DNA from: Hominibacterium faecale
Lineage (GTDB): Bacteria > Bacillota > Clostridia > Peptostreptococcales > Anaerovoracaceae
DNA: 64,000 bases
Assembly: GCF_020734085.1 (NCBI RefSeq)
Contig: NZ_JAJAGH010000008.1
Coordinates: 5,743 to 69,742, forward strand
Reading direction: 5' to 3'
Shown: positions 8,578 to 52,467 of the stretch, piece after piece
Position numbering within the stretch: position 1 is the stretch's first letter
How the letters are laid out: every line of letters starts with the position of its first letter
Translations under genes and position numbers: made by a program
The notes under the pieces: model-generated
What the model saw: only the letters and a program-made list of their open reading frames with translations
What the model was told of the DNA's origin: nothing
Databases searched by the model: none

Positions 8578-9612
8578 ATGACAAAGGTAGATCTGATATC
8601 CGGCTTTCTAGGCGCCGGAAAAACGACGTTTATTAAAGAGCTGATTGCAAAAGTTTGGAAGGATGAAAAGATCGTTCTTATTGAAAACGAATTCGGTGAG
8701 ATCGGCATTGACAGCCGGTTTATGCAGGACTGCGGCATTGAAGTTACAGAAATGAATTCTGGCTGCATTTGCTGCACCTTGGTAGGCGACTTTGCAAGAG
8801 CCCTCAAACAGGTGGTGGAAGAATTCCAGCCTGACCGGGTGATCATCGAGCCTTCCGGCGTGGGCAAGCTGTCCGATGTGGCCGCCGCCGTCAAGGAGAT
8901 GGAGGAAAGCGCCCAGGTAGAGATCGACTGCAAAATTACAGTTGTGGATGGGAAAAAGGCAAAGCTCTATATCAAGAATTTCGGAGAATTCTATAACAAT
9001 CAGCTGGAAAACGCGGACACGATCGTTGTCAGCCGTACCCAGGACATGACCGAGGAAAAACTCAAGGAATGCCTGGCTTTGATCCAGGAGCATAATGAGG
9101 ATGCGGCCATCATTACCACGCCCTGGCAGCAGCTTTCCGGCGAAATGATTCTGGACGCCCTGCACCACGCCCATGATCTGGAAGCGGAGCTGGCCAGGGA
9201 GCATGACCACGATCACCACCATGGAGCCTGCCACCATGAAGATCACCATCATGAACATCACCACCACCACGATGAAAGCTGCGGCTGCGGCCATGAACAT
9301 CATCATGACCACGATCACGAAGGCCACCATCATGCGGATGAAGTGTTCACAAGCTGGGGGATCGAAACGGTCCACAAATTCAATGAATCCGAGCTTGCGG
9401 ATACGCTGAAAATGCTCAGCATGACCGATGAATTCGGCACGGTTCTGCGGGCTAAAGGCATCGTGGAAGGTGAGGACGGACAGTGGCTCGAGTTTGACAT
9501 GGTCCCCGAAGAGACAGAGATCCGCAGGTGCCGCCCTGACTATACGGGCAGAATCTGTGTGATCGGGACCGAGCTCAAAACGGACGATCTAAAGCGGGTC
9601 TTTGGTAAATAG
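8578..9612 (+). CDS. COG0523 (CobW/ZigA/YciC-type) metallochaperone GTPase with His-rich tract
   Basis: P-loop GFLGAGKTT, CICC metal-binding motif, and a long His/Asp/Glu-rich stretch (HDHDHHHGACHHEDHHHEHHHHH...). Confidence 0.8.
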   Translation: MTKVDLISGFLGAGKTTFIKELIAKVWKDEKIVLIENEFGEIGIDSRFMQDCGIEVTEMNSGCICCTLVGDFARALKQVVEEFQPDRVIIEPSGVGKLSDVAAAVKEMEESAQVEIDCKITVVDGKKAKLYIKNFGEFYNNQLENADTIVVSRTQDMTEEKLKECLALIQEHNEDAAIITTPWQQLSGEMILDALHHAHDLEAELAREHDHDHHHGACHHEDHHHEHHHHHDESCGCGHEHHHDHDHEGHHHADEVFTSWGIETVHKFNESELADTLKMLSMTDEFGTVLRAKGIVEGEDGQWLEFDMVPEETEIRRCRPDYTGRICVIGTELKTDDLKRVFGK

Positions 9613-9641
9613 AGGGCCGGAGCAATAAGGAGGCAGAGATT

Positions 9642-10583
9642 ATGGAAATTCCTGTTTATTTGTTTACAGGACTTTTGGACAGCGGAAAGACGACCCTGAT
9701 TCAGGAGGTCGCTGGTGAAGAAGACTTTCTGGAGCCGGGGACGACGCTGCTGATTCAGTGTGAAGAGGGGGAAACCTCATTCAGCGATGCATTTTTGGAA
9801 CAATATCAAATAAAAAAGATCGACGTGGAGGATCCGGAAGAACTCAATGAGCTTTTTTGGAGACGTTGTGAAAAAACGTACCGGCCGGCTCAAATTATAA
9901 TCGAATACAATGGGATGTGGGAGCTGAGTACGCTGTTTGAGAGCGGAATTCCCGAAGACTGGTTCATCGGCGGCATCTATTCCACCGTCGATGCCGGGTC
10001 TGCAGAAATGTATATTGCCAACATGCGCAAGGTTTTTATGGAGCCGCTGAAGGAGTCCAATCTGATCATATTCAACCGCTGCGGCGATGATACGGATCGG
10101 CTCAAATTCCGAAGAAGCCTGAAAGCCCTTAATCCTCAGGTCCAAGTGGCTTTTGAGCGCACCGACGGCACCATGTTTGAAAACGAAATCGAAGAAATGC
10201 CCTTTGATTACAGCGGACAGACAGTGGTCATTGAGGATATGGATTACGGGCTTTGGTATCTGGATGCAATGGACCATCCCGACCGCTATATGGGAAAAGA
10301 GGTTATGTTTACAGCAAGATACTGCGCCAGCGCCAAAGCCTCTCAGAAATACTTTGTCCCCGGCCGCCATATCATGACCTGCTGCGAAGATGATATTCAA
10401 TTTCTGGGGTTTATCTGTGACTTCGAGGGTGAAATGCCCTTTGAACATGGAGACTGGGTACGGGTTACGGCTCAATTTGATTATGGTTTCAGCAAAATGT
10501 ACGGAGAAGAAGGCCCCCTGCTGCATTTGATTCATATTGAGGAAGGAAACAAACCGGAACAGGAACTGGTCGCCTTTACGTGA
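9642..10583 (+). CDS. COG0523-like paralog lacking the canonical CxCC motif
   Basis: P-loop-like GLLDSGKTT. The metal-site position reads IQCEEGE instead of CxCC. Co-oriented 30 nt downstream of the first paralog. Confidence 0.55.
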   Translation: MEIPVYLFTGLLDSGKTTLIQEVAGEEDFLEPGTTLLIQCEEGETSFSDAFLEQYQIKKIDVEDPEELNELFWRRCEKTYRPAQIIIEYNGMWELSTLFESGIPEDWFIGGIYSTVDAGSAEMYIANMRKVFMEPLKESNLIIFNRCGDDTDRLKFRRSLKALNPQVQVAFERTDGTMFENEIEEMPFDYSGQTVVIEDMDYGLWYLDAMDHPDRYMGKEVMFTARYCASAKASQKYFVPGRHIMTCCEDDIQFLGFICDFEGEMPFEHGDWVRVTAQFDYGFSKMYGEEGPLLHLIHIEEGNKPEQELVAFT

Positions 10584-16511: not shown

Positions 16512-16569
16512 TTGACATTGACAATAGTACTAATCCGTACTATAATAAATATGGTACGAATCAGTACTA
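16512..16569 (+). promoter_or_regulatory. marR promoter (TTGACA-17-TATAAT) overlapped by a 19-bp inverted-repeat operator
   Basis: TTGACA at 16518-23 and TATAAT at 16541-46. TAGTACTAATCCGTACTAT (16525-43) pairs with ATGGTACGAATCAGTACTA (16551-69) as an inverted repeat. Confidence 0.5.
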
Positions 16570-16583
16570 TTTTGTGGAGGTGA

Positions 16584-17024
16584 ATGATGAATATTCGTGA
16601 ACAGATCAAGCTGGTAAATCGTGCGCTGAGCGGCACTCTGGACTTGTACGGAGTATGGGCGAAAAAGCACGGACTCAACTATAATGCTCTCGTCATTTTA
16701 TATACGCTGGACGATTGTCAGACTTGTACGCAAAAACAAATTTGCCAATGGTGGGCGCTGCCCAAGCAGACCGTCCATGGCATTTTGCTGGATTTTGAGA
16801 AGAAAGGCTATCTTACAATAACAGCAAATACAGAGAATAAGCGTGAACGGCTCGTCGCATTTACAGAAAAGGGAAAAGCATTTGCAGCTTCCATACTGGA
16901 GCCCCTTTATAAGATGGAAGAGAAGGCTATGAAAAAGATGGGACAAGAGCAGCGAGCTCAGCTGATTGCCTGCAATACAAACTACTATGAATTATTAAAG
17001 GAGGAAATGGAACATGGAGAATAA
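16584..17024 (+). CDS. MarR-family transcriptional regulator
   Basis: wHTH region. Overlaps the downstream MATE gene by 11 nt. Confidence 0.8.
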   Translation: MMNIREQIKLVNRALSGTLDLYGVWAKKHGLNYNALVILYTLDDCQTCTQKQICQWWALPKQTVHGILLDFEKKGYLTITANTENKRERLVAFTEKGKAFAASILEPLYKMEEKAMKKMGQEQRAQLIACNTNYYELLKEEMEHGE

Positions 17025-18345
17025 ACTGGCCGGGAAGTTTACATTTGCTTCCTTGCTGTCCTTTGCCATTCCCAATGTAATTATGATGATTACCTTGTCC
17101 ATGTATATAATTGTTGACGGCATGTTTGTATCCCGTCTGGCGGGAACGACAGCGCTTTCGGCTGTAAACATGATTTACCCGGCAATCTGCTTTGAAATGG
17201 CCATTGGAATCATGATCGCTACCGGAGGAAGCGCCATTGCAGCCAGAAAACTGGGAGAAGGGAAGCAAAGAGAGGCACAGAAAATTTTAAGCTTTCTAAT
17301 TGTCGTGGAGCTGGTGATTGGCATTGTATTTGCCGTTGCAGGCAACTTGTTTCTGGAGGAAATCGTTCTGTTGCTGGGAGCAAGCGAAAGACAGCTTCCC
17401 ATGTCTCTTGCATACGGCAGAATTATATTTGCCTTTGCCCCTGCCTTTTTCCTGCAGACGGCCTTCCAGACCTTTTTGGTTACTGCGGGAAAACCTGCTC
17501 TCGGCTTGATGGTTACTGTGTCCGCTGGTATTGTGAACATTGTATTGGACTTTATTTTCATGGCGCCGCTGGATATGGGCGTGTCTGGCGCGGCTCTGGC
17601 TACCGGATTGGGATATTGCGTTCCTGCTGTTGTCGGATCGGTCTTTTTTCTGAAGAAAAAAGAGAATCCGCTTCATTTGGTCAGACCGGCAGTGGACTGG
17701 AAGGTTCTTCGGCAGTCATGTGCAAATGGTTCTTCAGAGATGGTGGTGAATTTAGCCAATGCTGCAACGACCTTTTTGTTCAACTATATCTTACTGGATT
17801 TTTACGGAGAAGACGGCGTTGCTTCAATAACGATCCTGCTATATTTCCAATATCTATTTACCGCCCTCTATTTTGGCTACTCCAACGGGATCGCGCCGAT
17901 CATCAGCTTTAAGTACGGAAGTGGAGATCAAGAGCAATTAAAAAAAATCTTTAAATGCAGTATCTTATTCTTGATCATAAGCTCCGTCCTGGCAAATATC
18001 CTGATCCAGTTGACCGTAACCCATGCCCTTACAATTTTTACGCCCGCAGACAGCAGGGTTTATGATATCGCCCTAAACGGGTTCTGGCTGTATTCGCCGG
18101 CGTTCCTGATCATGGGTCTGGGCATCTTTGCTTCTTCCATGTTTACGGCCTTTTCCGACGGGAAGATATCGGCTGTCATATCCTTTTCCAGAACCTTTAT
18201 TTTCATTGTGGGAGCGATTCTTATTCTGCCTTATTTACTGGGCGGCGCTGGGATTTGGATCGCTGTGCCGCTAGCAGAAATTCTTGGGTTTTTTGTGGCA
18301 ATTATCTTTCTCATTTCCAGAAAAGATCGATATGCATACGCCTGA
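17014..18345 (+). CDS. MATE-family efflux transporter
   Basis: 12 TM. MATE signature regions. Confidence 0.8.
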   Translation: MENKLAGKFTFASLLSFAIPNVIMMITLSMYIIVDGMFVSRLAGTTALSAVNMIYPAICFEMAIGIMIATGGSAIAARKLGEGKQREAQKILSFLIVVELVIGIVFAVAGNLFLEEIVLLLGASERQLPMSLAYGRIIFAFAPAFFLQTAFQTFLVTAGKPALGLMVTVSAGIVNIVLDFIFMAPLDMGVSGAALATGLGYCVPAVVGSVFFLKKKENPLHLVRPAVDWKVLRQSCANGSSEMVVNLANAATTFLFNYILLDFYGEDGVASITILLYFQYLFTALYFGYSNGIAPIISFKYGSGDQEQLKKIFKCSILFLIISSVLANILIQLTVTHALTIFTPADSRVYDIALNGFWLYSPAFLIMGLGIFASSMFTAFSDGKISAVISFSRTFIFIVGAILILPYLLGGAGIWIAVPLAEILGFFVAIIFLISRKDRYAYA

Positions 18346-18480
18346 AATGCTGAGGGCTTTTTCGGGCTGATGCCCGCCAATGGTATCCTTTTGGTGCCTA
18401 TCCCACTTTAAAGTGCCGTCTTTACAAGCTGAAAACATGCGGTCATAATAGACTTAACATGAATAGAGGAGGCCGCGGCC

Positions 18481-19353
18481 ATGGAAGATAGGAAACGGGA
18501 CAGCAATAAAGAGAAACTGAGGAGCATGGCTCTTATTTTAAACCGGGCCGATGCCCTTGTCATTGGGGCCGGTGCCGGTCTTTCTGCGTCAGCAGGCTTT
18601 ACTTACGACGGACCCCGTTTTACCGACAATTTTTCCGAGTTCATCGAGCGGTATGGGATGACGGATATGTACTCGGCAGGTTTTTATCCGTTTAAAACCC
18701 CGGAGGAAAAGTGGGCCTATTGGAGCAGGCATATTTATGTCAACCGCTACGATATGGAAGCGGGCCGGGCATACAAGGATTTATTTCAGCTGGTGAACGA
18801 CAGGAATTATTTTGTCATCACCACCAATGTGGACCATCAATTTCAGCTGGCGGGATTTGACGATGATCGGATTTTTGCGACTCAGGGGGATTACGGGCTT
18901 TTCCAGTGCAAGCGGGCTTGCCACAAAAGGCTGTATGAGAATGAAGATCAGATCCGGGAAATGGTGAAGCACCAGAAAAACTGCCGCATTCCCTCCTCGC
19001 TGGTACCGAAATGCCCGGTATGCGGCGGTGAGATGGAGGTCAATCTCCGCGCAGACGGTTTTTTTGTGGAAGATGGAAGCTGGCACCGGGCTGCCCGGCG
19101 ATATGAGGCATTTTTAAACGAGAACATGGAAAAAAGCATCGTGTTCCTGGAGCTGGGTGTGGGCATGAATACCCCCGGCATCATTAAATATCCCTTCTGG
19201 AAGATGACAAAGGGCATGAGCCGCGCTTTTTACATTTGCATCAATCGGGGAGAAGCCTGGGCGCCGGGTGAAATTGAGGATCGATCCATCTGTGTGGATG
19301 GGGATATCGGGGAACTACTCAACCAATTATTGCTGTACGAATCGAGGCTTTGA
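18481..19353 (+). CDS. Sir2-family protein (macrodomain-linked sirtuin, SirTM-like)
   Basis: GAGAGLSASAG NAD-binding loop, TTNVD, and CxxC...CPVCGG zinc motif. GAGGAGG RBS. Confidence 0.65.
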   Translation: MEDRKRDSNKEKLRSMALILNRADALVIGAGAGLSASAGFTYDGPRFTDNFSEFIERYGMTDMYSAGFYPFKTPEEKWAYWSRHIYVNRYDMEAGRAYKDLFQLVNDRNYFVITTNVDHQFQLAGFDDDRIFATQGDYGLFQCKRACHKRLYENEDQIREMVKHQKNCRIPSSLVPKCPVCGGEMEVNLRADGFFVEDGSWHRAARRYEAFLNENMEKSIVFLELGVGMNTPGIIKYPFWKMTKGMSRAFYICINRGEAWAPGEIEDRSICVDGDIGELLNQLLLYESRL

Positions 19354-19361
19354 AAAAGGAG

Positions 19362-20216
19362 ATGGGACGGATGAGTCAGTTTGATACACAAGAAGAACAG
19401 CTGGAATATCTGGTAAGGGAGCTGAAAAGAGACAGCGGCCGCTATAAGGATTTGGTCATTCCCAAAGGGAAACTCGAAAAAAGAAGGCTGATGCGATCCT
19501 TTATGAATATCCGTATGCCGGAACCGATGGATGAGGATTTTCTGAAAGTCCAAGATCAGTTCCTACAGCAGGAGGCCCGGGAAAAGGGCATTGTCTCTAT
19601 TTCACGCCTTGCATCTGTGAAAGAGGAATTGGGGTGCGCTATGGAACATGGGGAGCGGATGGTTCTTTGGCGGGGAGATATCACTACCCTGGCGGCGGAT
19701 GCCATTGTCAATGCGGCCAATTCACAGCTTCTGGGATGTTTTGTACCCTGTCACGGATGCATCGATAACGCAATTCACTCGGCTGCGGGGGTGCAGCTGC
19801 GGGAGGAATGCAGCAGGATCATGAAAGCCCAGGGACATAGCGAACCTGCGGGAACTGCCAAGATCACCAGCGGATATAACCTTCCCTGCAGATATGTGAT
19901 TCATACAGTAGGTCCTATCGTTGCAGATACGTTGACAGATGAGGACTGCCGGCTGCTGGCCGGCTGCTATGAATCCTGCCTTCGATTGGCGGCAGAAAAG
20001 GGACTAAAGAGCATCGCCTTTTGCTGTATTTCCACCGGAGAATTCCACTTTCCCCAGGAGATTGCTGCAGAGATCGCAGTGAAAACTGTCCGCGATTTTC
20101 TGAGGGAAAACGGGGAGCTGGATACGGTGATTTTCAATGTATTCAAAGAAAGGGACTATGAGATTTACCGGGAAATTTTCTGCGGCGGCTCGTCATCTGT
20201 AAGCTGCTCTTTATAA
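19362..20216 (+). CDS. macro-domain protein (ADP-ribose-processing hydrolase) with N-terminal extension
   Basis: GDITTLAADAIVNAANSQLLG and IHTVGP macro motifs. About 95-aa N-terminal extension. Start ambiguous (TTG 19350, ATG 19362 or 19371). Overlaps the sirtuin stop. Confidence 0.7.
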   Translation: MGRMSQFDTQEEQLEYLVRELKRDSGRYKDLVIPKGKLEKRRLMRSFMNIRMPEPMDEDFLKVQDQFLQQEAREKGIVSISRLASVKEELGCAMEHGERMVLWRGDITTLAADAIVNAANSQLLGCFVPCHGCIDNAIHSAAGVQLREECSRIMKAQGHSEPAGTAKITSGYNLPCRYVIHTVGPIVADTLTDEDCRLLAGCYESCLRLAAEKGLKSIAFCCISTGEFHFPQEIAAEIAVKTVRDFLRENGELDTVIFNVFKERDYEIYREIFCGGSSSVSCSL

Positions 20217-20515
20217 GCGGTTCCCCAATCGATCATGGATTTTAGGACTGGCTGCAGGCTGAGTCCTGTTTCGGTAAGAGAATATTCCACTCTGGGCGGA
20301 ACTTCCGGGTAAACGGTGCGATTTAGAAGACCGGCCTTTTCCATATCGCGAAGATTGCTGGTCAGCACCTTTTGGGTGATGCCGCTCAGGGAACGCATCA
20401 GTTCGTTGAAACGTTTCGTCCCGGAGAGCAGGTCGCGGATAATCAGGACCTTCCACTTGTTTCCAATGAGCTGAAGGGTCATTTCCACCGGACATTTTGG
20501 AATTTTTTCTTGCAT
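20165..20515 (-). CDS. HxlR-family transcriptional regulator
   Basis: CPVEMTLQLIGNKWK HxlR signature. The 3' end overlaps the macro gene by 52 nt (convergent). Confidence 0.75.
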   Translation of the reverse strand: MQEKIPKCPVEMTLQLIGNKWKVLIIRDLLSGTKRFNELMRSLSGITQKVLTSNLRDMEKAGLLNRTVYPEVPPRVEYSLTETGLSLQPVLKSMIDWGTAYKEQLTDDEPPQKISR

Positions 20516-20604
20516 GTGGATCGGCTCCTTTCTATAAACAGGTTGTATTACGGCAGATAAACTAATTCCTATTATAATAAAAGAAAAAGAAGAGGTAAAG
20601 GATA

Positions 20605-21213
20605 ATGAATGAGAAAGCGAGAAAATATGTGGATTTGTTTCGTCAGGTCAAGATCGCATCGGCGGCCACTGTGGATGAAAAGGGGCGTCCCCAGAGCAGG
20701 ATTATCAATGTGATGATCGCTGCAGACGAAGGCATGTATATCGTAACTTCCAAAGGCAAGCCCTTTTACAAACAGCTGATTGATACGGGACGGGTCGCCC
20801 TCAGCGCCATGTGTCCGGATTGTCAATCGCTGAAATTCAGCGGCAAGGTGCGGCAAGTGGACAAACAATGGGTAGACCGGGTCTTTGAAGCCAATCCGGG
20901 GATGAACGAGGTATATCCCGGCAAGACGAGGGATGCTTTGGAGGCTTTTCTGATTTATGAAGGCAGCGGCGAATGGTTCGATCTTCTCAGCTATCCTATC
21001 AATCGGGAGACCTTTGCATACAACACAGAGGAAGAAGCGGCCGGGTTTGAGATTACGGACGATTGCATCGGATGCGGGCTTTGTCTTCCGGTTTGTCCTC
21101 AAAAATGTATTGTGAAGGGACAAGCCTATGGTATAATGAAGAGTCATTGCCTGCAATGCGGCGCATGTCTGGCGGCGTGCCCGCAGGGAGCGATTCGCAG
21201 GCTGCATCCATGA
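20605..21213 (+). CDS. PNPOx-like FMN-binding domain fused to a 2x[4Fe-4S] ferredoxin domain
   Basis: N-terminal pyridoxamine-phosphate-oxidase-like split barrel. C-terminal CIGCGLCLPVCP and CLQCGACLAACP motifs. Confidence 0.6.
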   Translation: MNEKARKYVDLFRQVKIASAATVDEKGRPQSRIINVMIAADEGMYIVTSKGKPFYKQLIDTGRVALSAMCPDCQSLKFSGKVRQVDKQWVDRVFEANPGMNEVYPGKTRDALEAFLIYEGSGEWFDLLSYPINRETFAYNTEEEAAGFEITDDCIGCGLCLPVCPQKCIVKGQAYGIMKSHCLQCGACLAACPQGAIRRLHP

Positions 21214-45343: not shown

Positions 45344-45360
45344 ATACAGGAGATTTGTCA

Positions 45361-46269
45361 ATGAAGGAAAAACGGACAGGGATTATCTTTAATACGCAGA
45401 AATTTTCCATACATGACGGCGGCGGGATACGGACCCTGATTTTTATGAAGGGCTGCCCGCTGCGGTGTATCTGGTGCAGCAATCCGGAATCCCAGAGGCC
45501 GGAGCCGGAGATCACAGATGTAAAAACCAATTGTATTGGCTGCGGAGACTGCGTTTGTGTATGTCCGAAGGAGGCAGTCAATCCGTTGACCTTTCAGATT
45601 GACCGGGGCAAGTGCGATGCCTGCGGCCTGTGCGCGAAAAGCTGCTACGCACAGGCTAAAAAGCTGACCGGTCAGGTAGTGACTGTGGAGGAGCTGGTGA
45701 ATATCGCTGTAAAGGATCAGGTCATATACCGGAATTCAGGCGGCGGTGTGACGGTCGGAGGCGGCGAGCCTCTGACCCAGCCGGACTTCGTTTACGAGTT
45801 TCTCCGTGCCTGCAGCATGCGCAACATCCATACGGCCATTGAAACCTGCGGCTTTGGAGACTGGTCTGAGGTGGAAAAGGTTTTTCACCAGGCCGATCAG
45901 ATTTTATTTGATTTGAAATGCATGGATGAGGAAAAGCATCGGGCGTATACTGGCGTAAGTAATAAAAGCATCCTGCTCAACGCAGAAAAGGCGGCGGCCT
46001 CAGGCAAAGAGATCCGCTTTCGGGTCCCGGTGATCCCAGGGGTAAACGACGGGGAGAATATACGGCAAACCGGAGCGTTTGTCCGTGGGCTGCAGAGGCA
46101 AAACAGTCAGGTGAAGGTTGAACTGCTGCCTTATCATAATTTTGGAAAAGACAAGTATAAATGGCTCGGCAGAAAGTATGATCTGGAGCCTTTAGAGCGT
46201 ATGGAAAAAGAGGAGTTGGGCCGATATTACAAGGTGTTGGAAGAATTGGACTGTAATGTCGTATATTAA
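45361..46269 (+). CDS. glycyl radical enzyme activating protein (radical SAM, with two extra ferredoxin-like clusters)
   Basis: CPLRCIWCSNPES radical-SAM motif. CIGCGDCVCVCP and CDACGLCAKSC motifs. AGGAG RBS. ATG at 45361. Confidence 0.85.
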   Translation: MKEKRTGIIFNTQKFSIHDGGGIRTLIFMKGCPLRCIWCSNPESQRPEPEITDVKTNCIGCGDCVCVCPKEAVNPLTFQIDRGKCDACGLCAKSCYAQAKKLTGQVVTVEELVNIAVKDQVIYRNSGGGVTVGGGEPLTQPDFVYEFLRACSMRNIHTAIETCGFGDWSEVEKVFHQADQILFDLKCMDEEKHRAYTGVSNKSILLNAEKAAASGKEIRFRVPVIPGVNDGENIRQTGAFVRGLQRQNSQVKVELLPYHNFGKDKYKWLGRKYDLEPLERMEKEELGRYYKVLEELDCNVVY

Positions 46270-46272
46270 AAA

Positions 46273-46312
46273 AGGAGCCGGTCGCTGTGCATTCAGTGGC
46301 CGGCTCCTTTTG
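46273..46312. terminator. bidirectional terminator
   Basis: ggagccggtc...ggccggctcc stem with T-run, between convergent operons. Confidence 0.55.
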
Positions 46313-46401
46313 TTGGGCTTCCGCATAGATTGGAAAAATGTCGCTTCGCGATCTTTCCTCATTGATGCGACAGCCCAACTCGATTAATTTATATGAAATG
46401 G

Positions 46402-47478
46402 CTATTTCACATAGGTCTCCATTGGGCGGATCATATAGTTGAGAGGGCCCATCTTATCGGTCGTAACATAGCCTGGCTCGGAGTTCATGACATCCGGTAT
46501 CCGGTTAACAACGGAAGCACAGGTAATGGCTACGGTGTCCGGTTTCTTTAATACGAAGTCCTGGGTCGGTTCTCCGTAAAGGGTCCATTTGATCAAATCC
46601 TCTTCGCCGGGAGCATATACTTTTCCCACACACTCGGTTTCCAGCGTGATGCCTTCTTCTGTAGTGGTAATCACCGTAGCGGAGAGCCCGACTGCATGGC
46701 CGGCGGGGATTTCTGTCTGCAGAACATCGGACCATAACGGCTGATCGCAGGTCTGAGGGATGAATTTCTGTTCCTGTGTCTTTACAGTCAATCCCAGCAG
46801 GGAACAGATCCAGCCGTTGGCATTCCACATGTAGCATGGAAGGAAATCTTCTGTTTCCAGTACTTCCTGTCTCTTTTCCTCAGAAATATTATTAACAGCG
46901 GCAATGGTCTTTTCAAATTCATCCAGCGACAGGTTGACGCCATGAACCTTGGCCAGGGCAACTCCGTAATCTTCCGAATTATATACAACAGAGCCTTTAA
47001 TTTTGGTGACTTTATTGGATGCCCCGGCGATGGTGGAAATAATGTATCCCCAGCCCATGTCCTGTGCTCCGGTCCCGCAGATGGTACAGTTGTTCTTTTT
47101 TGCAAGCTCATCGATTTCCTTTGTCATCTTATAGCGGGAGTTCCATGGATAAAAGGCCTCTTCACATGTGGAGATGGCATTAATGCCCAATTCCGCGCAG
47201 AGAAGGAAGATGTCCTGACAGTCGGGGAGAAGGGCCATGGTTTCAACAATGCATACATCCGGCTTAGTCTGGGTGAGGATCTGGCGGGCATCCTTGGCGT
47301 AGCTGACTTTAACGCCCTTGTTTTCTGTGCCCATGATCTCGCCAATATCTTTGCCAAAGGCGCGGTCGGATTTACCAAAAGCGCAGACCACCTCGCCACC
47401 ATGGTCATAGACATACTTCATAGTTGGACCAGCCATTTTTCCACTTCCATACTGAGCAACTTTTACTTTACGATTCAT
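46402..47478 (-). CDS. DapB-fold NAD(P)-dependent oxidoreductase, probable amine dehydrogenase (2,4-diaminopentanoate dehydrogenase-like family)
   Basis: N-terminal Rossmann motif KVAQYGSGKMAG. Architecture recalls native amine dehydrogenases. AGGAGG RBS. Last gene of the dehydratase operon. Confidence 0.5.
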   Translation of the reverse strand: MNRKVKVAQYGSGKMAGPTMKYVYDHGGEVVCAFGKSDRAFGKDIGEIMGTENKGVKVSYAKDARQILTQTKPDVCIVETMALLPDCQDIFLLCAELGINAISTCEEAFYPWNSRYKMTKEIDELAKKNNCTICGTGAQDMGWGYIISTIAGASNKVTKIKGSVVYNSEDYGVALAKVHGVNLSLDEFEKTIAAVNNISEEKRQEVLETEDFLPCYMWNANGWICSLLGLTVKTQEQKFIPQTCDQPLWSDVLQTEIPAGHAVGLSATVITTTEEGITLETECVGKVYAPGEEDLIKWTLYGEPTQDFVLKKPDTVAITCASVVNRIPDVMNSEPGYVTTDKMGPLNYMIRPMETYVK

Positions 47479-47552
47479 TTTTTACCTCCTAAAATTTTCA
47501 CAATGATTGATATGTTGATACGGCAAAATCAGCCGATCTGGATAAACACAAG

Positions 47553-47897
47553 TTATAACGGATATAAGGGCAGCCCTTTCACGAGGCGGGCTGCATTTTG
47601 ACCAAAGATTCGCCCTTCCTTTTTCGTCAGAGCAGGCGGCCTCTTTTCCAGGATACAGGTCCCGGGCCCAGCCTTCTGATGCATGAGAAACACCTTCTCT
47701 TTTGATATTCCGATTGCAATGCCCACCTTGGAAGCCTGAGCTGAGCCAAAGGTGTGCTCGTTCAGAGCAGAGGCGGGCGCAAGGGTGCGGGTGCTGAACA
47801 AGCCTTCCTCCTCGATTCCGTACTCGATCTGCGTCACATAGCAGGATAGGGAGTCCTCGGTATAAAGCAGGTGGATTGCCGGGTATCGGTTATTCAT
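47553..47897 (-). CDS. diol/glycerol dehydratase reactivase small (beta) subunit
   Basis: Start at MNNRYPAIHLLY. EEEG and NAARLVKGLP blocks match DdrB/DhaG. Overlaps the alpha subunit stop by 8 nt. Confidence 0.7.
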   Translation of the reverse strand: MNNRYPAIHLLYTEDSLSCYVTQIEYGIEEEGLFSTRTLAPASALNEHTFGSAQASKVGIAIGISKEKVFLMHQKAGPGTCILEKRPPALTKKEGRIFGQNAARLVKGLPLYPL

Positions 47898-49782
47898 GGC
47901 CCCCTCCTTTTTGCGCTTTTGCTGCGCCATCTGGTTGGGGTGAAGACTTGCGGTCAAAGGCTTCTTCTTTCTGAAGGAATGCATAAAGCAGGCCGCTAGC
48001 AACCGCATTCCGCGGCCCCATGCACCCGCGAATATTGCCTTTCCCGCTGGTGATGCCATAGTAGGCCAAAACATCCGTCAGCATATTTGGGAGTTCAAAG
48101 TCCAGTGAAGAGCCACCGACCAGCACCACATGCTCGAATTCATGAAGGGTGCCTGTAGCAGAAACCTTCAACAATGCCCGAAGCACATTGTTGACAAAGA
48201 CCTTTCGTTTGATCTCTCTGCGGACGGAACGAACCTTTTCCAAAGAATGCCTGGTATTGATCGGCAGATATCCGTCCGGTTGAATGGACAAAAGTTTGGC
48301 GAAAAAGTCACTGTGGAGCGGCTCTTTGAAAAACTCCACACTTCCGTCTTCGTGGCGCAGGTGAAACAGGGACTCGGCTCTTGCCAGAGGATATTTTTTG
48401 ATGGCTTCCGCTTCTTCTCTGGAAGAAAGGCCCAGCTCTGCCTGGATCAGCTCGGTCACCATGTTGCCCGCGCCAGCCAGGTGGATGGTCTTTTTCTGGC
48501 CATCACTGTGAAGATAACAGGAATCCGTAGATCCGGCGCCAATATCAACAACCAGGATGGGCGTTCCGCTTCCCGGCGTCGTGAGGGTTCCAAGGACTGC
48601 CATATCTCCCTCGACACCGCCGATCTCCGTGGGGCAGCCGACTGTTTCCTCCAGTAGAGCCGCCAGGTGCTGCATGTGCAGCTTTTGGGTCTTTACCATG
48701 GCCGCGATGCCGACGGATTTTTCCATATAAAACTCATTGGCCAAGGAGCCGATCACATTTTGCGGCACCAAAGTGTCTACGGCCATCAGATCCTGAATAA
48801 AGATGGAATCTTCCGGCGTATCGGTGACTTGAGCCATCTTTTTGCGAACCGACTCCAGCATACCGCCGACATTCGTACCGCTGCTGCCGTGGACATCACG
48901 AATCGAACCGGCACGTTTCACCTGATCCATAATTTTTTGGGCACCGTCGTCCACGTTGACCCGGTACTGCTGCCTCTGTCCGTCGATGATGATTTCGCCC
49001 GCCGGGATGATCCGTTCATGGATGCTGCCGGAAGGCGTTTTGATGACAACGGCAGAGCGGTTGCCGATCAGCGCTTTGGCAATATGGATTACATGCTTTG
49101 TCTCCGCAGAAGAGAGAGAAAAGGCGGTCGCAATGCCATAGGGGTTGGTGAGAAAGTCGATCGACGCACCCGGCCTTGCCACCTCTACGGCACACAGATA
49201 ATCCACCGGAACCTTATCGATGAGGGAGACCTCATCCACGATGGGAAGGGTTTCCGAAAGCCGATTGCAGATCAGCACCCCGTCATCATTTTGGACGATC
49301 AGTCCTTTGATGGAATAACCATCTTCAATGGCCAGATTAACCTCCCTGGCTGCGGTAATAAAGTCGTGCTCCTCTGAAATAATAACGATATGCGGCTTTT
49401 GTTTATCTGCTGCGGGAAGATCCTCCAAAAATACGGTGTAGCCGATGCCAAGACCAAGGCCACCGGGAGTGTCCGGGTTGTGGCCAATCATGGCAGATTC
49501 GGTAATGACCGTCTGAGTGATCGTTTCCATGGCAAAATCACCGATCACAGGAGTTGCCTCGTTAATACGGATCAGATCCAGAGAAGACAGCGGGATATCC
49601 ATATCCGCACAGGCTTCTTTTAGAGAATTGATCATTCCGTAAAGGTTGTCTTTTGTACCTTTGATACCGGTTGTTTTTGTTATTCCGCTGGTGCAGCGAA
49701 GCAGCCGCCCATCCTGGATCTTGCCCAGAGCAGTTTCGGTGGTAGCATTTCCGATATCGATACCAGCTACATAAGTGATCAT
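47890..49782 (-). CDS. diol/glycerol dehydratase reactivase large (alpha) subunit
   Basis: MITYVAGIDIGNATTE N-terminus typical of DdrA/DhaF. 630 aa. Confidence 0.8.
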   Translation of the reverse strand: MITYVAGIDIGNATTETALGKIQDGRLLRCTSGITKTTGIKGTKDNLYGMINSLKEACADMDIPLSSLDLIRINEATPVIGDFAMETITQTVITESAMIGHNPDTPGGLGLGIGYTVFLEDLPAADKQKPHIVIISEEHDFITAAREVNLAIEDGYSIKGLIVQNDDGVLICNRLSETLPIVDEVSLIDKVPVDYLCAVEVARPGASIDFLTNPYGIATAFSLSSAETKHVIHIAKALIGNRSAVVIKTPSGSIHERIIPAGEIIIDGQRQQYRVNVDDGAQKIMDQVKRAGSIRDVHGSSGTNVGGMLESVRKKMAQVTDTPEDSIFIQDLMAVDTLVPQNVIGSLANEFYMEKSVGIAAMVKTQKLHMQHLAALLEETVGCPTEIGGVEGDMAVLGTLTTPGSGTPILVVDIGAGSTDSCYLHSDGQKKTIHLAGAGNMVTELIQAELGLSSREEAEAIKKYPLARAESLFHLRHEDGSVEFFKEPLHSDFFAKLLSIQPDGYLPINTRHSLEKVRSVRREIKRKVFVNNVLRALLKVSATGTLHEFEHVVLVGGSSLDFELPNMLTDVLAYYGITSGKGNIRGCMGPRNAVASGLLYAFLQKEEAFDRKSSPQPDGAAKAQKGGGHE

Positions 49783-49794
49783 AGGCTGCTCCTT

Positions 49795-50217
49795 TTACCG
49801 GTTGTGCTTGAGGCGGTTGCTGTCTTGCAGGATTTCGCCTGCCTCCCGGACGAACTGAGCGGTCTCAGCGGCTCCGTATTTGTTTTCCAAAGCATCGGCA
49901 ACCGCTAAAATGTCTTCCATTTCACTACGGAAAGGGCGAATAGTGTTATAGACTTCCAAAATATAGTCATCGGGAACATTGGTCAGCTCCGCCGCGCGCC
50001 GCAGATTGGCCGCAATCTGAATATCGCCTGCCGACTGGGCGATTTCGGCCTGCATCAGCAAGGTGTCCTTGTGGATCTTTCCGTCCTCCATTTTGACCGT
50101 CCCTGCCAGAACGTTTTCCATGGTCAGTTGGCCTATGGGTCTTCCGGACATGGCTTTCAGTTTGTCAGGGTGCTTTTCCAGGAGTGGATAATCGGTTTTG
50201 TAATTTAAGGTATTCAT
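49795..50217 (-). CDS. B12-dependent diol/glycerol dehydratase small (gamma) subunit
   Basis: DYPLLEKHPD and RRAAELTNVPDDYILEVYNTIRPFRS match PddC/DhaB3. Confidence 0.8.
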   Translation of the reverse strand: MNTLNYKTDYPLLEKHPDKLKAMSGRPIGQLTMENVLAGTVKMEDGKIHKDTLLMQAEIAQSAGDIQIAANLRRAAELTNVPDDYILEVYNTIRPFRSEMEDILAVADALENKYGAAETAQFVREAGEILQDSNRLKHNR

Positions 50218-50241
50218 GGGTTTTGCCGTTCCTTTCTGTAA

Positions 50242-52467
50242 TTATATAAAAGAGACTTCAAGCTCTACCGGTTTGATGTTTTTGATCTGAGCTGTTTCGT
50301 GGTTGTGAAGAAGGGTTGTTTTCAACATATAAAATCTCGTGCTGCTGTCGATATCGCCGGGAAGCGGTTCAGGGCTTTCCCCTTTTGCGTATTTGGCCGC
50401 ATTTTTTCCGATAGCCCGGTAGGTTTTTTTGTCATAAAGCGGCGACTGAGGGAAAAGCTCCAGATTGTCCAAAGGTACCAGATCTTTTTGATGGATCACC
50501 GTAGTCCCTCTTGACTGGATACCGATGCTGATGCCTGAGCCGCTCAGCCTGGAACCTGCGCTGCTGATTACAGCCAGATCAGAGGAGCTGTAGCATTTGA
50601 TAAAGCGCGGTTTCATGCCTTCCTCTTCGATGCCGGCAGCAAGCTCGCGGAGCACGATTTCATGGGGGAGGTCTACGATGGTCTTTCGCTGCTGCTGCCC
50701 AAAGCTTGGAGAAACTGCAATAACAACTTCATCTGGATTTGTACCAGGAGCGGCAGGGCCGCATTCGGTGATGCCATTGATGTAGGATTCATCCCTGGAG
50801 TCGATAAAGTCATCTGTGGAAACAGCGCCCATGTGCTGCTGCATCTGATCCCACCGCGCATCCGAGATCTGATAGCCGGTCGTCGGTCCGGCATAGTCGT
50901 TTTCGTTATTGATCGCGCTTATCACGTGGAAGTTTTCGTCAAAGATTGCAGAGGTGTGCAGATAGTCTCCTGCCACGCGCTGCTTGAGCATGGTCAGGAT
51001 GTTTTCTGCAAGCTCCTCGTATCCGGCCTGGTACAAAACCTTCACAATATCAAAACCATTAAAATCGCTTTCCATAATGTGGGTAGCCGCTTTTATGTCT
51101 TCTGCAACGTTTCTCTTTGGCATATCGGAAGATTTGTAGGCGTAAACAGCAGCCTCTACTTCTTCATCGGTGATCTCAGGAAAATCCATCGCGTAGAACA
51201 GTGCCTGCATAGCCTGGGCTGCTTTGCGGCGATGAGCAATTACCTCCTCATTGCTGACTGGATGCAGTGCTCCATCTACCTTCATATCGCGCTGAACCAT
51301 ATAATAGTTGGCGTAGTTATCGCAGTCCATGGTGCTGGCGGAGAAGGTGTTGTCGCAGTTGGGAATAGAGGCATACCCGGAGGTGACCAGATCGGTGCCG
51401 GGCAGCATCTGCATCAGTAGCTTGGACATGCTGCGAGCCAGAGAGTGGGAAAAATAGGTGTCGTTACCAGAGGCTACTTCCAGTCCCAGCATAGAGGTCA
51501 GCAGATTTTCTGCGGCAACAGCCCGAAGCCCTGAGGGCATGGACGAGGATAGGGGCAGTCCGTCGATAGAACCGTTCTGCGTGCCCTGGGAGCCGCCAGC
51601 TTTTACCATCCAGACACAGCGCGCTTCCAGATACAGCATGGATTTTCCTTCCGCATAGCCCATCATGACCTCAGAGCCGGTACCAGAGGAAAAACGCATT
51701 TTCATACCCCGGGCGGCGTAGGCGGATGCCAGGAAAGATTTTGACCAGGGAGTATCATCTCCGTCAGACATGACCGCCTCGGTACCATATACGGAAACGG
51801 TTTCTGCGTAAGAGGTGAAGCCCTTCATGCCGATCTTCAATTCGGTGGCTTCCTCCAGGGAACACTGGGTGATAACGCCTGGGCGGCCGACCTGGCTTCC
51901 GATCATCAGCGCAATCGCGTTGAGCGGTGCGCAGCGAGTCACACTGCAGGTAGTCTCCAGTTCGGCAAAACCGCGGAGGGCAGCTTCGGCGGCATCGGCA
52001 GCCATCAGTACCGGATTGTCCAGCAGGTTGGTCACATGGGCCTGATTGGCCGGACTTTTTCTGGCTCGCATTTTCATTTGTGCCATCATGATTTCCACAA
52101 CGTTCATTTTGCTGACCACATCGACCAGTTTGGCAGGAGTCAGGCCGGAGGCAATCTTCAAAAGGTCACGTCTTGAAACGTTGATATCTACCAGCATCTT
52201 TGCGATTTCCGCGGAATCAAGGGCCATAGAGGTTTCCGCCTCAGAGACATTGATTCCATATTTAACAATAAATTTGTCGATAAAGTCAAATTCATCCCTG
52301 GTTTTTCCATCCATCTCCACAATCTGGCCATCTATGATTTTAATGCTGGGGCGAGGGTCGTTGGGGCTGTCCAGTGCGACTAAACCGACTGCAGGATCCT
52401 CCCACGCGATAACATCTTGGGTTACAGGGGCCTGCTCATATTTTTGTCTTCGTTTTGTTGATTTCAT
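50242..52467 (-). CDS. B12-dependent diol/glycerol dehydratase, fused large+medium (alpha-beta) subunit
   Basis: 741 aa. SPNDPRPSIKI, QCSLEEATELKIGM, TSYAETVSVYGTE and GDDTPWSK are collinear with Klebsiella PddA. The C-terminal 190 aa (EVVIAVSPSFG...) is beta-subunit-like. Confidence 0.85.
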   Translation of the reverse strand: MKSTKRRQKYEQAPVTQDVIAWEDPAVGLVALDSPNDPRPSIKIIDGQIVEMDGKTRDEFDFIDKFIVKYGINVSEAETSMALDSAEIAKMLVDINVSRRDLLKIASGLTPAKLVDVVSKMNVVEIMMAQMKMRARKSPANQAHVTNLLDNPVLMAADAAEAALRGFAELETTCSVTRCAPLNAIALMIGSQVGRPGVITQCSLEEATELKIGMKGFTSYAETVSVYGTEAVMSDGDDTPWSKSFLASAYAARGMKMRFSSGTGSEVMMGYAEGKSMLYLEARCVWMVKAGGSQGTQNGSIDGLPLSSSMPSGLRAVAAENLLTSMLGLEVASGNDTYFSHSLARSMSKLLMQMLPGTDLVTSGYASIPNCDNTFSASTMDCDNYANYYMVQRDMKVDGALHPVSNEEVIAHRRKAAQAMQALFYAMDFPEITDEEVEAAVYAYKSSDMPKRNVAEDIKAATHIMESDFNGFDIVKVLYQAGYEELAENILTMLKQRVAGDYLHTSAIFDENFHVISAINNENDYAGPTTGYQISDARWDQMQQHMGAVSTDDFIDSRDESYINGITECGPAAPGTNPDEVVIAVSPSFGQQQRKTIVDLPHEIVLRELAAGIEEEGMKPRFIKCYSSSDLAVISSAGSRLSGSGISIGIQSRGTTVIHQKDLVPLDNLELFPQSPLYDKKTYRAIGKNAAKYAKGESPEPLPGDIDSSTRFYMLKTTLLHNHETAQIKNIKPVELEVSFI

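Follow-up and report, generated by a model that had tools for sequence, protein, structure and literature searches.

Background

Few signalling pathways of reversible ADP-ribosylation are known in bacteria, and one of them is formed by class M sirtuins (SirTMs) and the zinc-dependent macrodomain proteins (Zn-Macros) encoded beside them. Class M is defined by a QG replacement, a class-specific pyrophosphate-binding motif (GVGx[NT]TP) and linkage to a macrodomain (Rack 2015, PMC4518038), and Zn-Macros are defined by a Cx(4)HxC zinc loop, a NAAN motif and an N-terminal bundle of three helices (Ariza 2024, PMC11490716). The extended operon of Staphylococcus aureus and Streptococcus pyogenes comprises genes for GcvH-L, a Zn-Macro, a SirTM and LplA2, plus OYE and a luciferase-like monooxygenase (LLM), and only this lipoyl-carrier branch of staphylococci and streptococci has a known substrate. 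Here, we describe a SirTM/Zn-Macro gene pair that lies by itself in a 64,000-nt stretch of a Hominibacterium faecale contig (NZ_JAJAGH010000008.1), hereafter called the window, with the SirTM gene at 18481–19353 and the Zn-Macro gene at 19371–20216, both on the (+) strand.

Lone pairs of this kind are far more numerous than the lipoyl-carrier branch, and most occur in gut Clostridia. They were reported from Clostridiaceae and Lachnospiraceae (Rack 2015, PMC4518038) and were later named the “minimal operon” in a study in which the Zn-Macro sequences clustered by genomic context (Ariza 2024, PMC11490716); the “operon” type in Table S3 of that study includes [Clostridium] asparagiforme, Clostridium sp. 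CAG:149, Dorea formicigenerans and others. The pair-only layout is therefore itself not new, and the target of ADP-ribosylation in lone pairs, which a first reading of the present locus from the sequence only (hereafter the sequence-only reading) had called unknown, is likewise a published open question (PMC4518038, PMC11490716). Fungal and amoebal Mfs1 proteins, such as Foc1Mfs1, which was crystallised without zinc (PMC11490716), join both activities in a single eukaryotic polypeptide. The SirTM systems of S. aureus and of fungi are induced by oxidative stress (PMC4518038, PMC11490716), and in S. aureus ADP-ribosylation of GcvH-L shields the lipoate from oxidation (PMC12440151).

Responses to thiol-reactive compounds are also the domain of the MarR/DUF24 sensors, among them YodB, QsrR, HxlR and HypR. 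Cys14 of HypR represents the conserved low-pKa sensing thiol of the DUF24 regulators, and the HypR operator, the 7-2-7 repeat GTATCAAAATTGATAC, lies upstream of the hypO promoter, where HypR acts as an activator (Palm 2012, PMC3351151). The characterised regulons of these sensors are not known to hold an ADP-ribosylation writer/eraser pair. From the comparison of the window with related loci, we consider it probable that the pair is a stand-alone minimal-operon module, composed of a writer and an eraser of protein mono-ADP-ribosylation and placed under thiol-stress control.

Results

A class M sirtuin followed by a zinc-dependent macrodomain

Both open reading frames (ORFs) that the sequence-only reading had paired as Sir2 and macrodomain genes are present on the same strand, at 18481–19353 and 19350–20216. 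The first is preceded by a ribosome-binding site (RBS; GAGGAGG, 18466–18472) and encodes a protein of 290 amino acids whose sequence identifies it as a class M sirtuin. Its best solved relative is the SirTM of S. pyogenes (SpySirTM, 5a3a; E 4.7e-72, residues 11–281), followed by Foc1Mfs1, a fungal fusion, in its SirTM half (8rsn; E 4.7e-30), and no canonical sirtuin chain in the PDB matched at E ≤ 1. The Pfam SIR2 model reached only 21.7 bits, under its gathering cutoff of 24, and the NCBIfam models for CobB stayed far below their cutoffs (NF040867, 30.9 against 320 bits; NF001753, 34.6 against 243 bits).

The catalytic His-Gly of other sirtuins is replaced by Q135-G136, which aligns to the QG of SpySirTM. 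Along with Q135, residues N116 (in TTNVD) and R190 (in NLRAD) and the GVGMNTP loop (226–232) are invariant in alignment A1, and the zinc cysteines are C143, C147, C178 and C181. Mutation of Asn118, Gln137 or Arg192 abolishes ADP-ribosylation by SpySirTM, the Q137H variant is dead too, and the SirTMs tested had no deacylase activity (PMC4518038). The macrodomain gene follows 17 nt downstream on the same strand, the linkage that is part of the definition of class M. By homology to SpySirTM, the protein is predicted to be an NAD+-dependent protein mono-ADP-ribosyltransferase.

The ORF that ends at 20216 encodes, by its motifs and model scores, a zinc-dependent macrodomain protein. NCBIfam NF003163 (“protein-ADP-ribose hydrolase”) scored 346.1 bits against a cutoff of 272, models of the YmdB/MacroD type stayed under their own cutoffs, and O-acetyl-ADP-ribose deacetylase models matched as well (E 8e-51). 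The best structure was MorMacro of Methanobrevibacter oralis (8rsi; E 6e-85, residues 14–279), with SauMacro (E 5e-67) and SpyMacro (E 6e-56) ranked lower. In the numbering of the 281-residue protein, the Cx4HxC zinc loop CFVPCHGC occupies positions 123–130, and the NAAN (114–117) and CIDNAIH (130–136) motifs, with the Asp/His dyad, are retained. The Pfam Macro domain covers residues 120–243 of the longer, 288-residue ORF (E 2e-40), and about 110 residues lie ahead of it that can be aligned to MorMacro from chain residue 5 onward; the N-terminal three-helix-bundle extension thus appears to be present, in line with the long N-terminal extension noted in the sequence-only reading. By homology to MorMacro, the protein is predicted to be an ADP-ribosyl hydrolase that reverses the SirTM mark. 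These comparisons support both assignments of that reading, a SirTM rather than a CobB deacetylase and a SirTM-linked macrodomain protein rather than a stand-alone MacroD/YmdB protein.

The translational overlap of the two genes, which had also been claimed, was not confirmed. The SirTM stop codon TGA occupies 19351–19353, and a 4-nt overlap arises only if the macrodomain gene, whose frame is open back to TTG 19350, starts at that codon. The overlap is doubtful because TTG 19350 lacks a usable RBS, while ATG 19371 has a good one (AAAGGAG, 19355–19361) 9 nt ahead of it and is the start in all public gene calls on identical contigs, giving 281 amino acids. The genes are most likely separated by 17 nt, without translational overlap but still operonic, and the overlap was probably an artefact of ORF calling.

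Conservation of the pair in related genomes

The SirTM belongs to a large family, with at least 8000 protein candidates at E ≤ 1e-5 and matches in at least 584 species-level genomes. For the comparison, we used the best 80 of the at least 584 related loci, with one genome per species, nearly all from Clostridia, and fetched up to 10 kb of flanking sequence on each side. The macrodomain gene is adjacent to the SirTM gene on the same strand in 73 of the 80 loci. The order SirTM–Macro seen in the window occurs in 32 loci, including all of its nearest relatives, and the order Macro–SirTM in 41. The layout of the window (SirTM, Macro, a convergent hxlR gene and, divergent from the latter, a gene for a PNPOx-ferredoxin fusion) is a rearranged form of recurrent parts; it is shared by the locus in the nearest genome (L007), whose SirTM is 74% identical. 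[Clostridium] asparagiforme, one of the published minimal operons, is represented among the related loci as well (L030), with a SirTM 66% identical to that of the window.

Several loci deviate from the usual pairing. The macrodomain genes missing from L046 and L084 are explained by contig ends. In L036 (8700–10800) and L053 (8800–10850), an hxlR gene, the promoter-region motif described below, an NmrA-like gene and the SirTM gene occur together, and no macrodomain match was found in the fetched flanks; these SirTM genes would lack a neighbouring eraser, and that would make them exceptions in the family. The macrodomain gene was recovered as two tblastn pieces or as a partial plus a full copy in L012 (10900–12800), L016 (3300–4400) and L085 (4000–5500), possibly because the eraser gene is frameshifted, is a pseudogene or was misassembled.

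Two archaeal genomes of the genus Methanomassiliicoccus (L061 and L076, 8500–10800) carry PNPOx-ferredoxin, Macro and SirTM genes in a row. Their SirTMs are about 58–59% identical to that of the window, and both loci lack the bacterial hxlR gene and the motif. The two loci point to a transfer of this three-gene cassette between gut Clostridia and archaea and to a functional linkage of the PNPOx-ferredoxin gene to the pair.

Absence of lipoylation partners

The absence of GcvH-L and LplA2 noted in the sequence-only reading was confirmed for the window. A tblastn search with the E. coli GcvH and LplA sequences gave no hit in the 64 kb (best E-value 0.19) and none within 10 kb of the pair in any of the 80 related loci; the E. 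coli GcvH query is possibly too distant to find GcvH-L by tblastn, so that the Pfam results weigh more. Neither GCV_H nor BPL_LplA_LipB was present among the precomputed Pfam families of the genes at about 13.8–29.4 kb or in 20 other ORFs of the window that are similar in size to GcvH or LplA. The families found between about 13.8 and 29.4 kb are those of an amino-acid permease, an M18 peptidase, MarR, MatE, the pair itself, HxlR, the PNPOx-ferredoxin protein, two ABC transporters, DUF2284, MoaE and WYL, and there is no OYE or LLM family among them or in the 20 additional ORFs; nor does an OYE or LLM gene occur within 10 kb of the pair in the 80 related genomes. The substrate of the pair cannot be a lipoyl carrier encoded in its operon.

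A one-cysteine HxlR regulator linked to the pair

Convergent with the macrodomain gene, on the (−) strand (20165–20515), lies the gene for an HxlR/DUF24-family regulator of 116 amino acids (PF01638, E 6.8e-35). Its best structural matches are HxlR (7bze, 2e-29) and HypR/YybR (4a5m, 3.6e-28) of Bacillus subtilis. The single cysteine of the protein, Cys8 in a CPVE motif, aligns to the sensing Cys14 of HypR and has the N-terminal position, at the start of helix 1, of the reactive cysteine in this family. The protein has no equivalent of HypR Cys49, nor does it have the Cys-x-Lys of the formaldehyde-sensing HxlR, at which position it carries a Val.

In 52 of the 80 loci, an HxlR gene occurs no more than 3 kb from the pair, and the density of HxlR matches falls about 48-fold, from 0.131 per kb near the pair to 0.0027 per kb at a distance of 3–10 kb. 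The CPVE motif is found in 55 of 59 pair-linked HxlR sequences, most of which have a single cysteine. Since the pair-linked proteins, apart from five clear paralogues, are 57–85% identical to that of the window, they constitute one family. In the usual layout of the relatives, hxlR is divergent from an operon that starts with one or more small oxidoreductase genes and continues with the pair.

The coding 3′ ends of hxlR and the macrodomain gene in the window overlap by 52 nt (20165–20216) with no terminator between them, and transcription of the two genes could mutually interfere.

Small oxidoreductases as variable partners

The gene divergent from hxlR in the window (20605–21213, + strand) encodes a fusion of 202 amino acids that combines a PNPOx-like domain (PNPOx_N, 2.8e-8) with a ferredoxin domain for two [4Fe-4S] clusters (Fer4, 1.3e-11), with PDB matches to 2hhz and NimC/NimA (2ig6). 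A PNPOx-type gene, with or without the 2x[4Fe-4S] part, is in or beside the operon of the pair in 30 of the 80 loci, the two Methanomassiliicoccus loci among them, and a gene for an NmrA-like NAD(P)H-binding protein is found in 22; one or the other accompanies the pair in 48. An FMN_red gene is near the pair in four loci, once beside a second copy of hxlR.

At least one of the regulator, an oxidoreductase and the motif is present in 71 of the 80 loci. Clustering of the same-strand ORFs within 3.6 kb of the pair revealed no universal third gene, and the variable partners include a family of unannotated 263-amino-acid ORFs in six loci. What stays constant is the pair together with the regulator; that the accompanying enzymes vary argues against any single one of them as the obligatory target.

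A conserved, putative promoter/operator region ahead of the pair

In the relatives, about 75 nt of the intergenic regions next to hxlR are strongly conserved. This stretch contains, in this order, an inverted repeat TAGTTTC-N5-GGTAACTA, an inverted repeat GCAC-AATAAA-GTGC, a −35-like element TTACTTTAC, a spacer and TATTATAAT. When 33 of these regions from other species, but not that of the window, were made into an nhmmer profile, it gave a single match in the entire window on both strands, namely at 18377–18451 on the (+) strand (E 1.3e-6), which ends 30 nt before the SirTM start. Given that protein identity to these loci is 57–68%, a level at which neutral intergenic DNA should no longer be alignable, the match indicates selection. 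In 53 of the 80 related loci, or 54 of 81 when the window is counted in, the operon of the pair is headed by the motif. The motif is on the operon strand without exception, lies in nearly all loci directly at the operon head (further upstream in L019 and L038) and is kept even where hxlR is not adjacent. A scan of the region against Rfam returned no family.

Within the motif, a promoter-like site at 18421–18449 (+ strand; TTTACA, 17 nt, CATAAT; 10 of 12 consensus matches) coincides with the conserved TTACTTTAC...TATTATAAT part. Beside its −35 element lies a perfect 12-bp palindrome, CACTTTAAAGTG (18404–18415), read from the sequence, which aligns to the motif core and corresponds to the GCAC-AATAAA-GTGC element of the relatives. 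Further upstream, a degenerate 5-6-5 inverted repeat resembling the HypR box, GTATC-CTTTTG-GTGCC (GTATCCTTTTGGTGCC, 18383–18398), has three mismatches to GTATC-N6-GATAC and is by itself weak evidence. A second HypR-box-like repeat, GTATT-ACGGCA-GATAA (GTATTACGGCAGATAA, 20545–20560), with two mismatches, lies between hxlR and the PNPOx-ferredoxin gene, just upstream of a TATAAT at 20573–20578.

Simple inverted-repeat detection (seed 6) in the two intergenic regions of the window found none, and the operator-like elements emerged only by comparison with relatives. Of the 54 regions close to hxlR in the relatives, 30 hold a clean copy of GTWWY-N6-RWWAC, compared with 1.2 on average after shuffling, a figure that is not an independent count as the sequences are interrelated.

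Extra copies of the motif are found downstream of SirTM in L054 (4400–9000) and L056 (10800–12200), where they adjoin a second, more distant HxlR paralogue (44% identical) that in L056 is divergent from an FMN reductase gene. These copies suggest that the motif marks a small regulon and not only the operon of the pair.

Other genes in the window

Upstream of the pair, a MarR-family gene (16584–17024) overlaps a MATE efflux gene (17014–18345) by 11 nt, and a sigma-70-like promoter with 12 of 12 consensus positions (TTGACA-17-TATAAT, 16518–16546) precedes both. The MarR-MATE unit is absent upstream of the pair in L007 and looks like a lineage-specific insertion or deletion. Farther away, two tandem genes for CobW/G3E-family GTPases (8578–10583), the second with a DUF1980 C-terminal domain, may encode metal chaperones unrelated to the pair. 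The region 45355–52467 holds a radical-SAM activase-like gene (45355–46269) beside an ORF of 801 amino acids and, on the opposite strand, a dehydratase small-subunit gene (49795–50217) flanked by ORFs of 741 and 630 amino acids; it resembles a diol/glycerol dehydratase cluster with a possible glycyl-radical enzyme next to it, and it too is unrelated to the pair.

Discussion

Comparison with described systems

The locus adds no new kind of system, and its arrangement, the minimal operon, is a catalogued variant. Like the M. oralis representative (MorMacro, 8RSI-K), it consists of two genes only, without GcvH-L and LplA, and has all defining motifs in common with it. The two differ in gene order, since published schemes place Macro before SirTM, while SirTM comes first in the window and in the 32 relatives of the same order. 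The linkage to HxlR, to PNPOx-like and NmrA-like proteins and to an operator is not mentioned in the two papers that describe minimal operons (PMC4518038, PMC11490716). No link between SirTM and an HxlR regulon or a conserved operator was found in the searchable literature, and a search on Enterococcus faecalis EF0647, a crystallised HxlR-family protein, as a possible neighbour of a SirTM pair gave only EF0648, a nitroreductase. The HxlR link and the conserved operator, as they emerge from comparative genomics, would be the only modestly new element.

With the extended operon found in S. aureus and S. pyogenes, the window shares the families of writer and eraser (5e-72 to SpySirTM, 5e-67 to SauMacro and 6e-56 to SpyMacro), the presence of flavin oxidoreductases and, by inference for the window, the tie to oxidative or thiol stress. 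It has none of GcvH-L, LplA2, OYE and LLM, and its type of locus is accompanied by oxidoreductases of other families (PNPOx-ferredoxin, NmrA-like, FMN_red). Both halves of the Mfs1 fusions are homologous to the pair (Foc1Mfs1, 8RSN; SirTM half 4.7e-30, macro half 6e-47) and, as in the window, there is no GcvH-L partner, but Mfs1 is a single polypeptide in macro-SirTM order, whereas the window has two genes in the opposite order. The regulator resembles HypR and the other MarR/DUF24 sensors in its PF01638 domain and in the correspondence of Cys8 to HypR Cys14. As with HypR and HypO, hxlR is divergent from an oxidoreductase gene, and the operator-like repeats resemble the HypR box; the difference is that the window protein is a one-cysteine regulator only.

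Proposed function and regulation

In the explanation that we favour, the SirTM would transfer ADP-ribose from NAD+ to a specific protein, most likely to an acidic side chain (Asp/Glu). Gln135 stands in place of the catalytic His, a change that in the studied SirTMs goes with the loss of deacylase activity. The Zn-Macro would hydrolyse the mark through its Cx4HxC zinc site, and the target would not be a dedicated GcvH-L lipoyl carrier. The pair would be transcribed as its own bicistronic unit from the promoter at about 18421–18449 in the conserved region of about 75 nt. Thiol-reactive stress (oxidants, electrophiles, quinones or nitro compounds) would switch on the module through an HxlR-type regulator, and small flavin/NAD(P)H oxidoreductases would be induced along with it. 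We infer this mode of induction because the promoter region is conserved and in most relatives lies between the operon and a divergent gene for a one-cysteine HxlR protein. The repeats are placed roughly 50–70 nt upstream of the predicted transcription start, a spacing that suits an activator such as HypR. That HxlR controls the pair is suggested mainly by linkage and by homology of the whole promoter region.

Several observations weigh against this explanation. The hxlR gene of the window is convergent with the pair and downstream of it, not divergent as in most relatives, and the inverted repeats of the window are degenerate, with two to three mismatches to the HypR-type box. Nine of the 80 loci have neither HxlR nor an oxidoreductase nor the motif. 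The motif is defined by 33 sequences of related organisms, whose mutual similarity overstates the independent support, and its conservation could be that of a promoter only, with another regulator reading it.

Alternative explanations

The pair may still be linked to lipoylation if a lipoylated carrier (GcvH, GcvH-L or an E2 lipoyl domain) is encoded elsewhere in the genome and served by a housekeeping LplA. Lipoyl-GcvH-L is the only known SirTM substrate, and its modification needs prior lipoylation (PMC4518038, PMC12440151); moreover, the GcvH and LplA search covered 64 kb of this genome, which is a further point against the explanation that we favour. On the other side, neither gene is found within 10 kb of the pair in any of the 80 loci, where the conserved neighbours are instead a redox regulator and oxidoreductases. 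The Zn-Macros of minimal operons and of fusions also fail to demodify SpyGcvH-L, and AlphaFold 3 complexes of lone-pair Zn-Macros with GcvH-L have poor scores (PMC11490716). On balance, we regard a carrier acting in trans as unlikely. Far less credible is a classical couple of a CobB-like deacylase and a MacroD/YmdB-type enzyme that clears O-acyl-ADP-ribose, as might be read from the weak SIR2 and CobB matches and from the O-acetyl-ADP-ribose deacetylase models that match the macrodomain protein at E 8e-51. The replacement of the catalytic His by Gln135, the CobB scores of 31–35 bits against cutoffs of 243–320, the lack of a canonical sirtuin structure at E ≤ 1, the YmdB-type models under and NF003163 over cutoff, and the published lack of deacylase activity together with the dead Q137H variant (PMC4518038) bring this couple close to refuted by sequence.

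The writer/eraser logic of the pair also resembles DarT/DarG, and Sir2 domains are common in defence systems, so that a DarTG-like toxin-antitoxin or a Sir2-type NAD+-depleting anti-phage module comes to mind. A PADLOC scan gave no match at E ≤ 0.01 for either SirTM or Macro, the surroundings consist of transporters and metabolic genes rather than a mobile or defence island, and the pair is embedded in a regulator/oxidoreductase operon conserved in dozens of species and belongs to a biochemically characterised protein-modifying family, all of which makes a defence role scarcely plausible. Nor does the pair have much chance of being the tail of the upstream MarR-MATE efflux operon (16584–18345) and of being regulated with drug efflux, even though the two are on one strand, only 135 nt apart, and a perfect sigma-70-like promoter is available at 16518–16546. 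This gap holds a terminator-like hairpin (18369–18387, past the MATE gene), the promoter-like site at 18421–18449 and the conserved operator motif, and neither MarR nor MATE is found upstream of the pair in L007 or any other locus. From these features of the gap and from the fact that the MarR/MATE neighbourhood is not conserved, the pair is read as its own transcription unit, in line with the thiol-stress-controlled module proposed above.

Conclusions

The comparative data narrow the experiments on this pair to a specific regulator, a defined DNA site and a small set of co-operonic oxidoreductases as possible substrates or functional partners. Going beyond the single locus, we suggest tentatively, as a possibility rather than a probability, that the lone pairs of gut anaerobes are the constant core of an HxlR-type thiol-stress regulon and act on a non-lipoylated target. 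If this is true, the candidate targets would be the co-regulated PNPOx-ferredoxin protein, the NmrA-like reductase or the one-cysteine HxlR sensor itself, and the conserved operator together with this short list of partners would make the target of the lone pairs directly testable. The pairs would then represent a lipoylation-independent, redox-triggered and reversible ADP-ribosylation switch.

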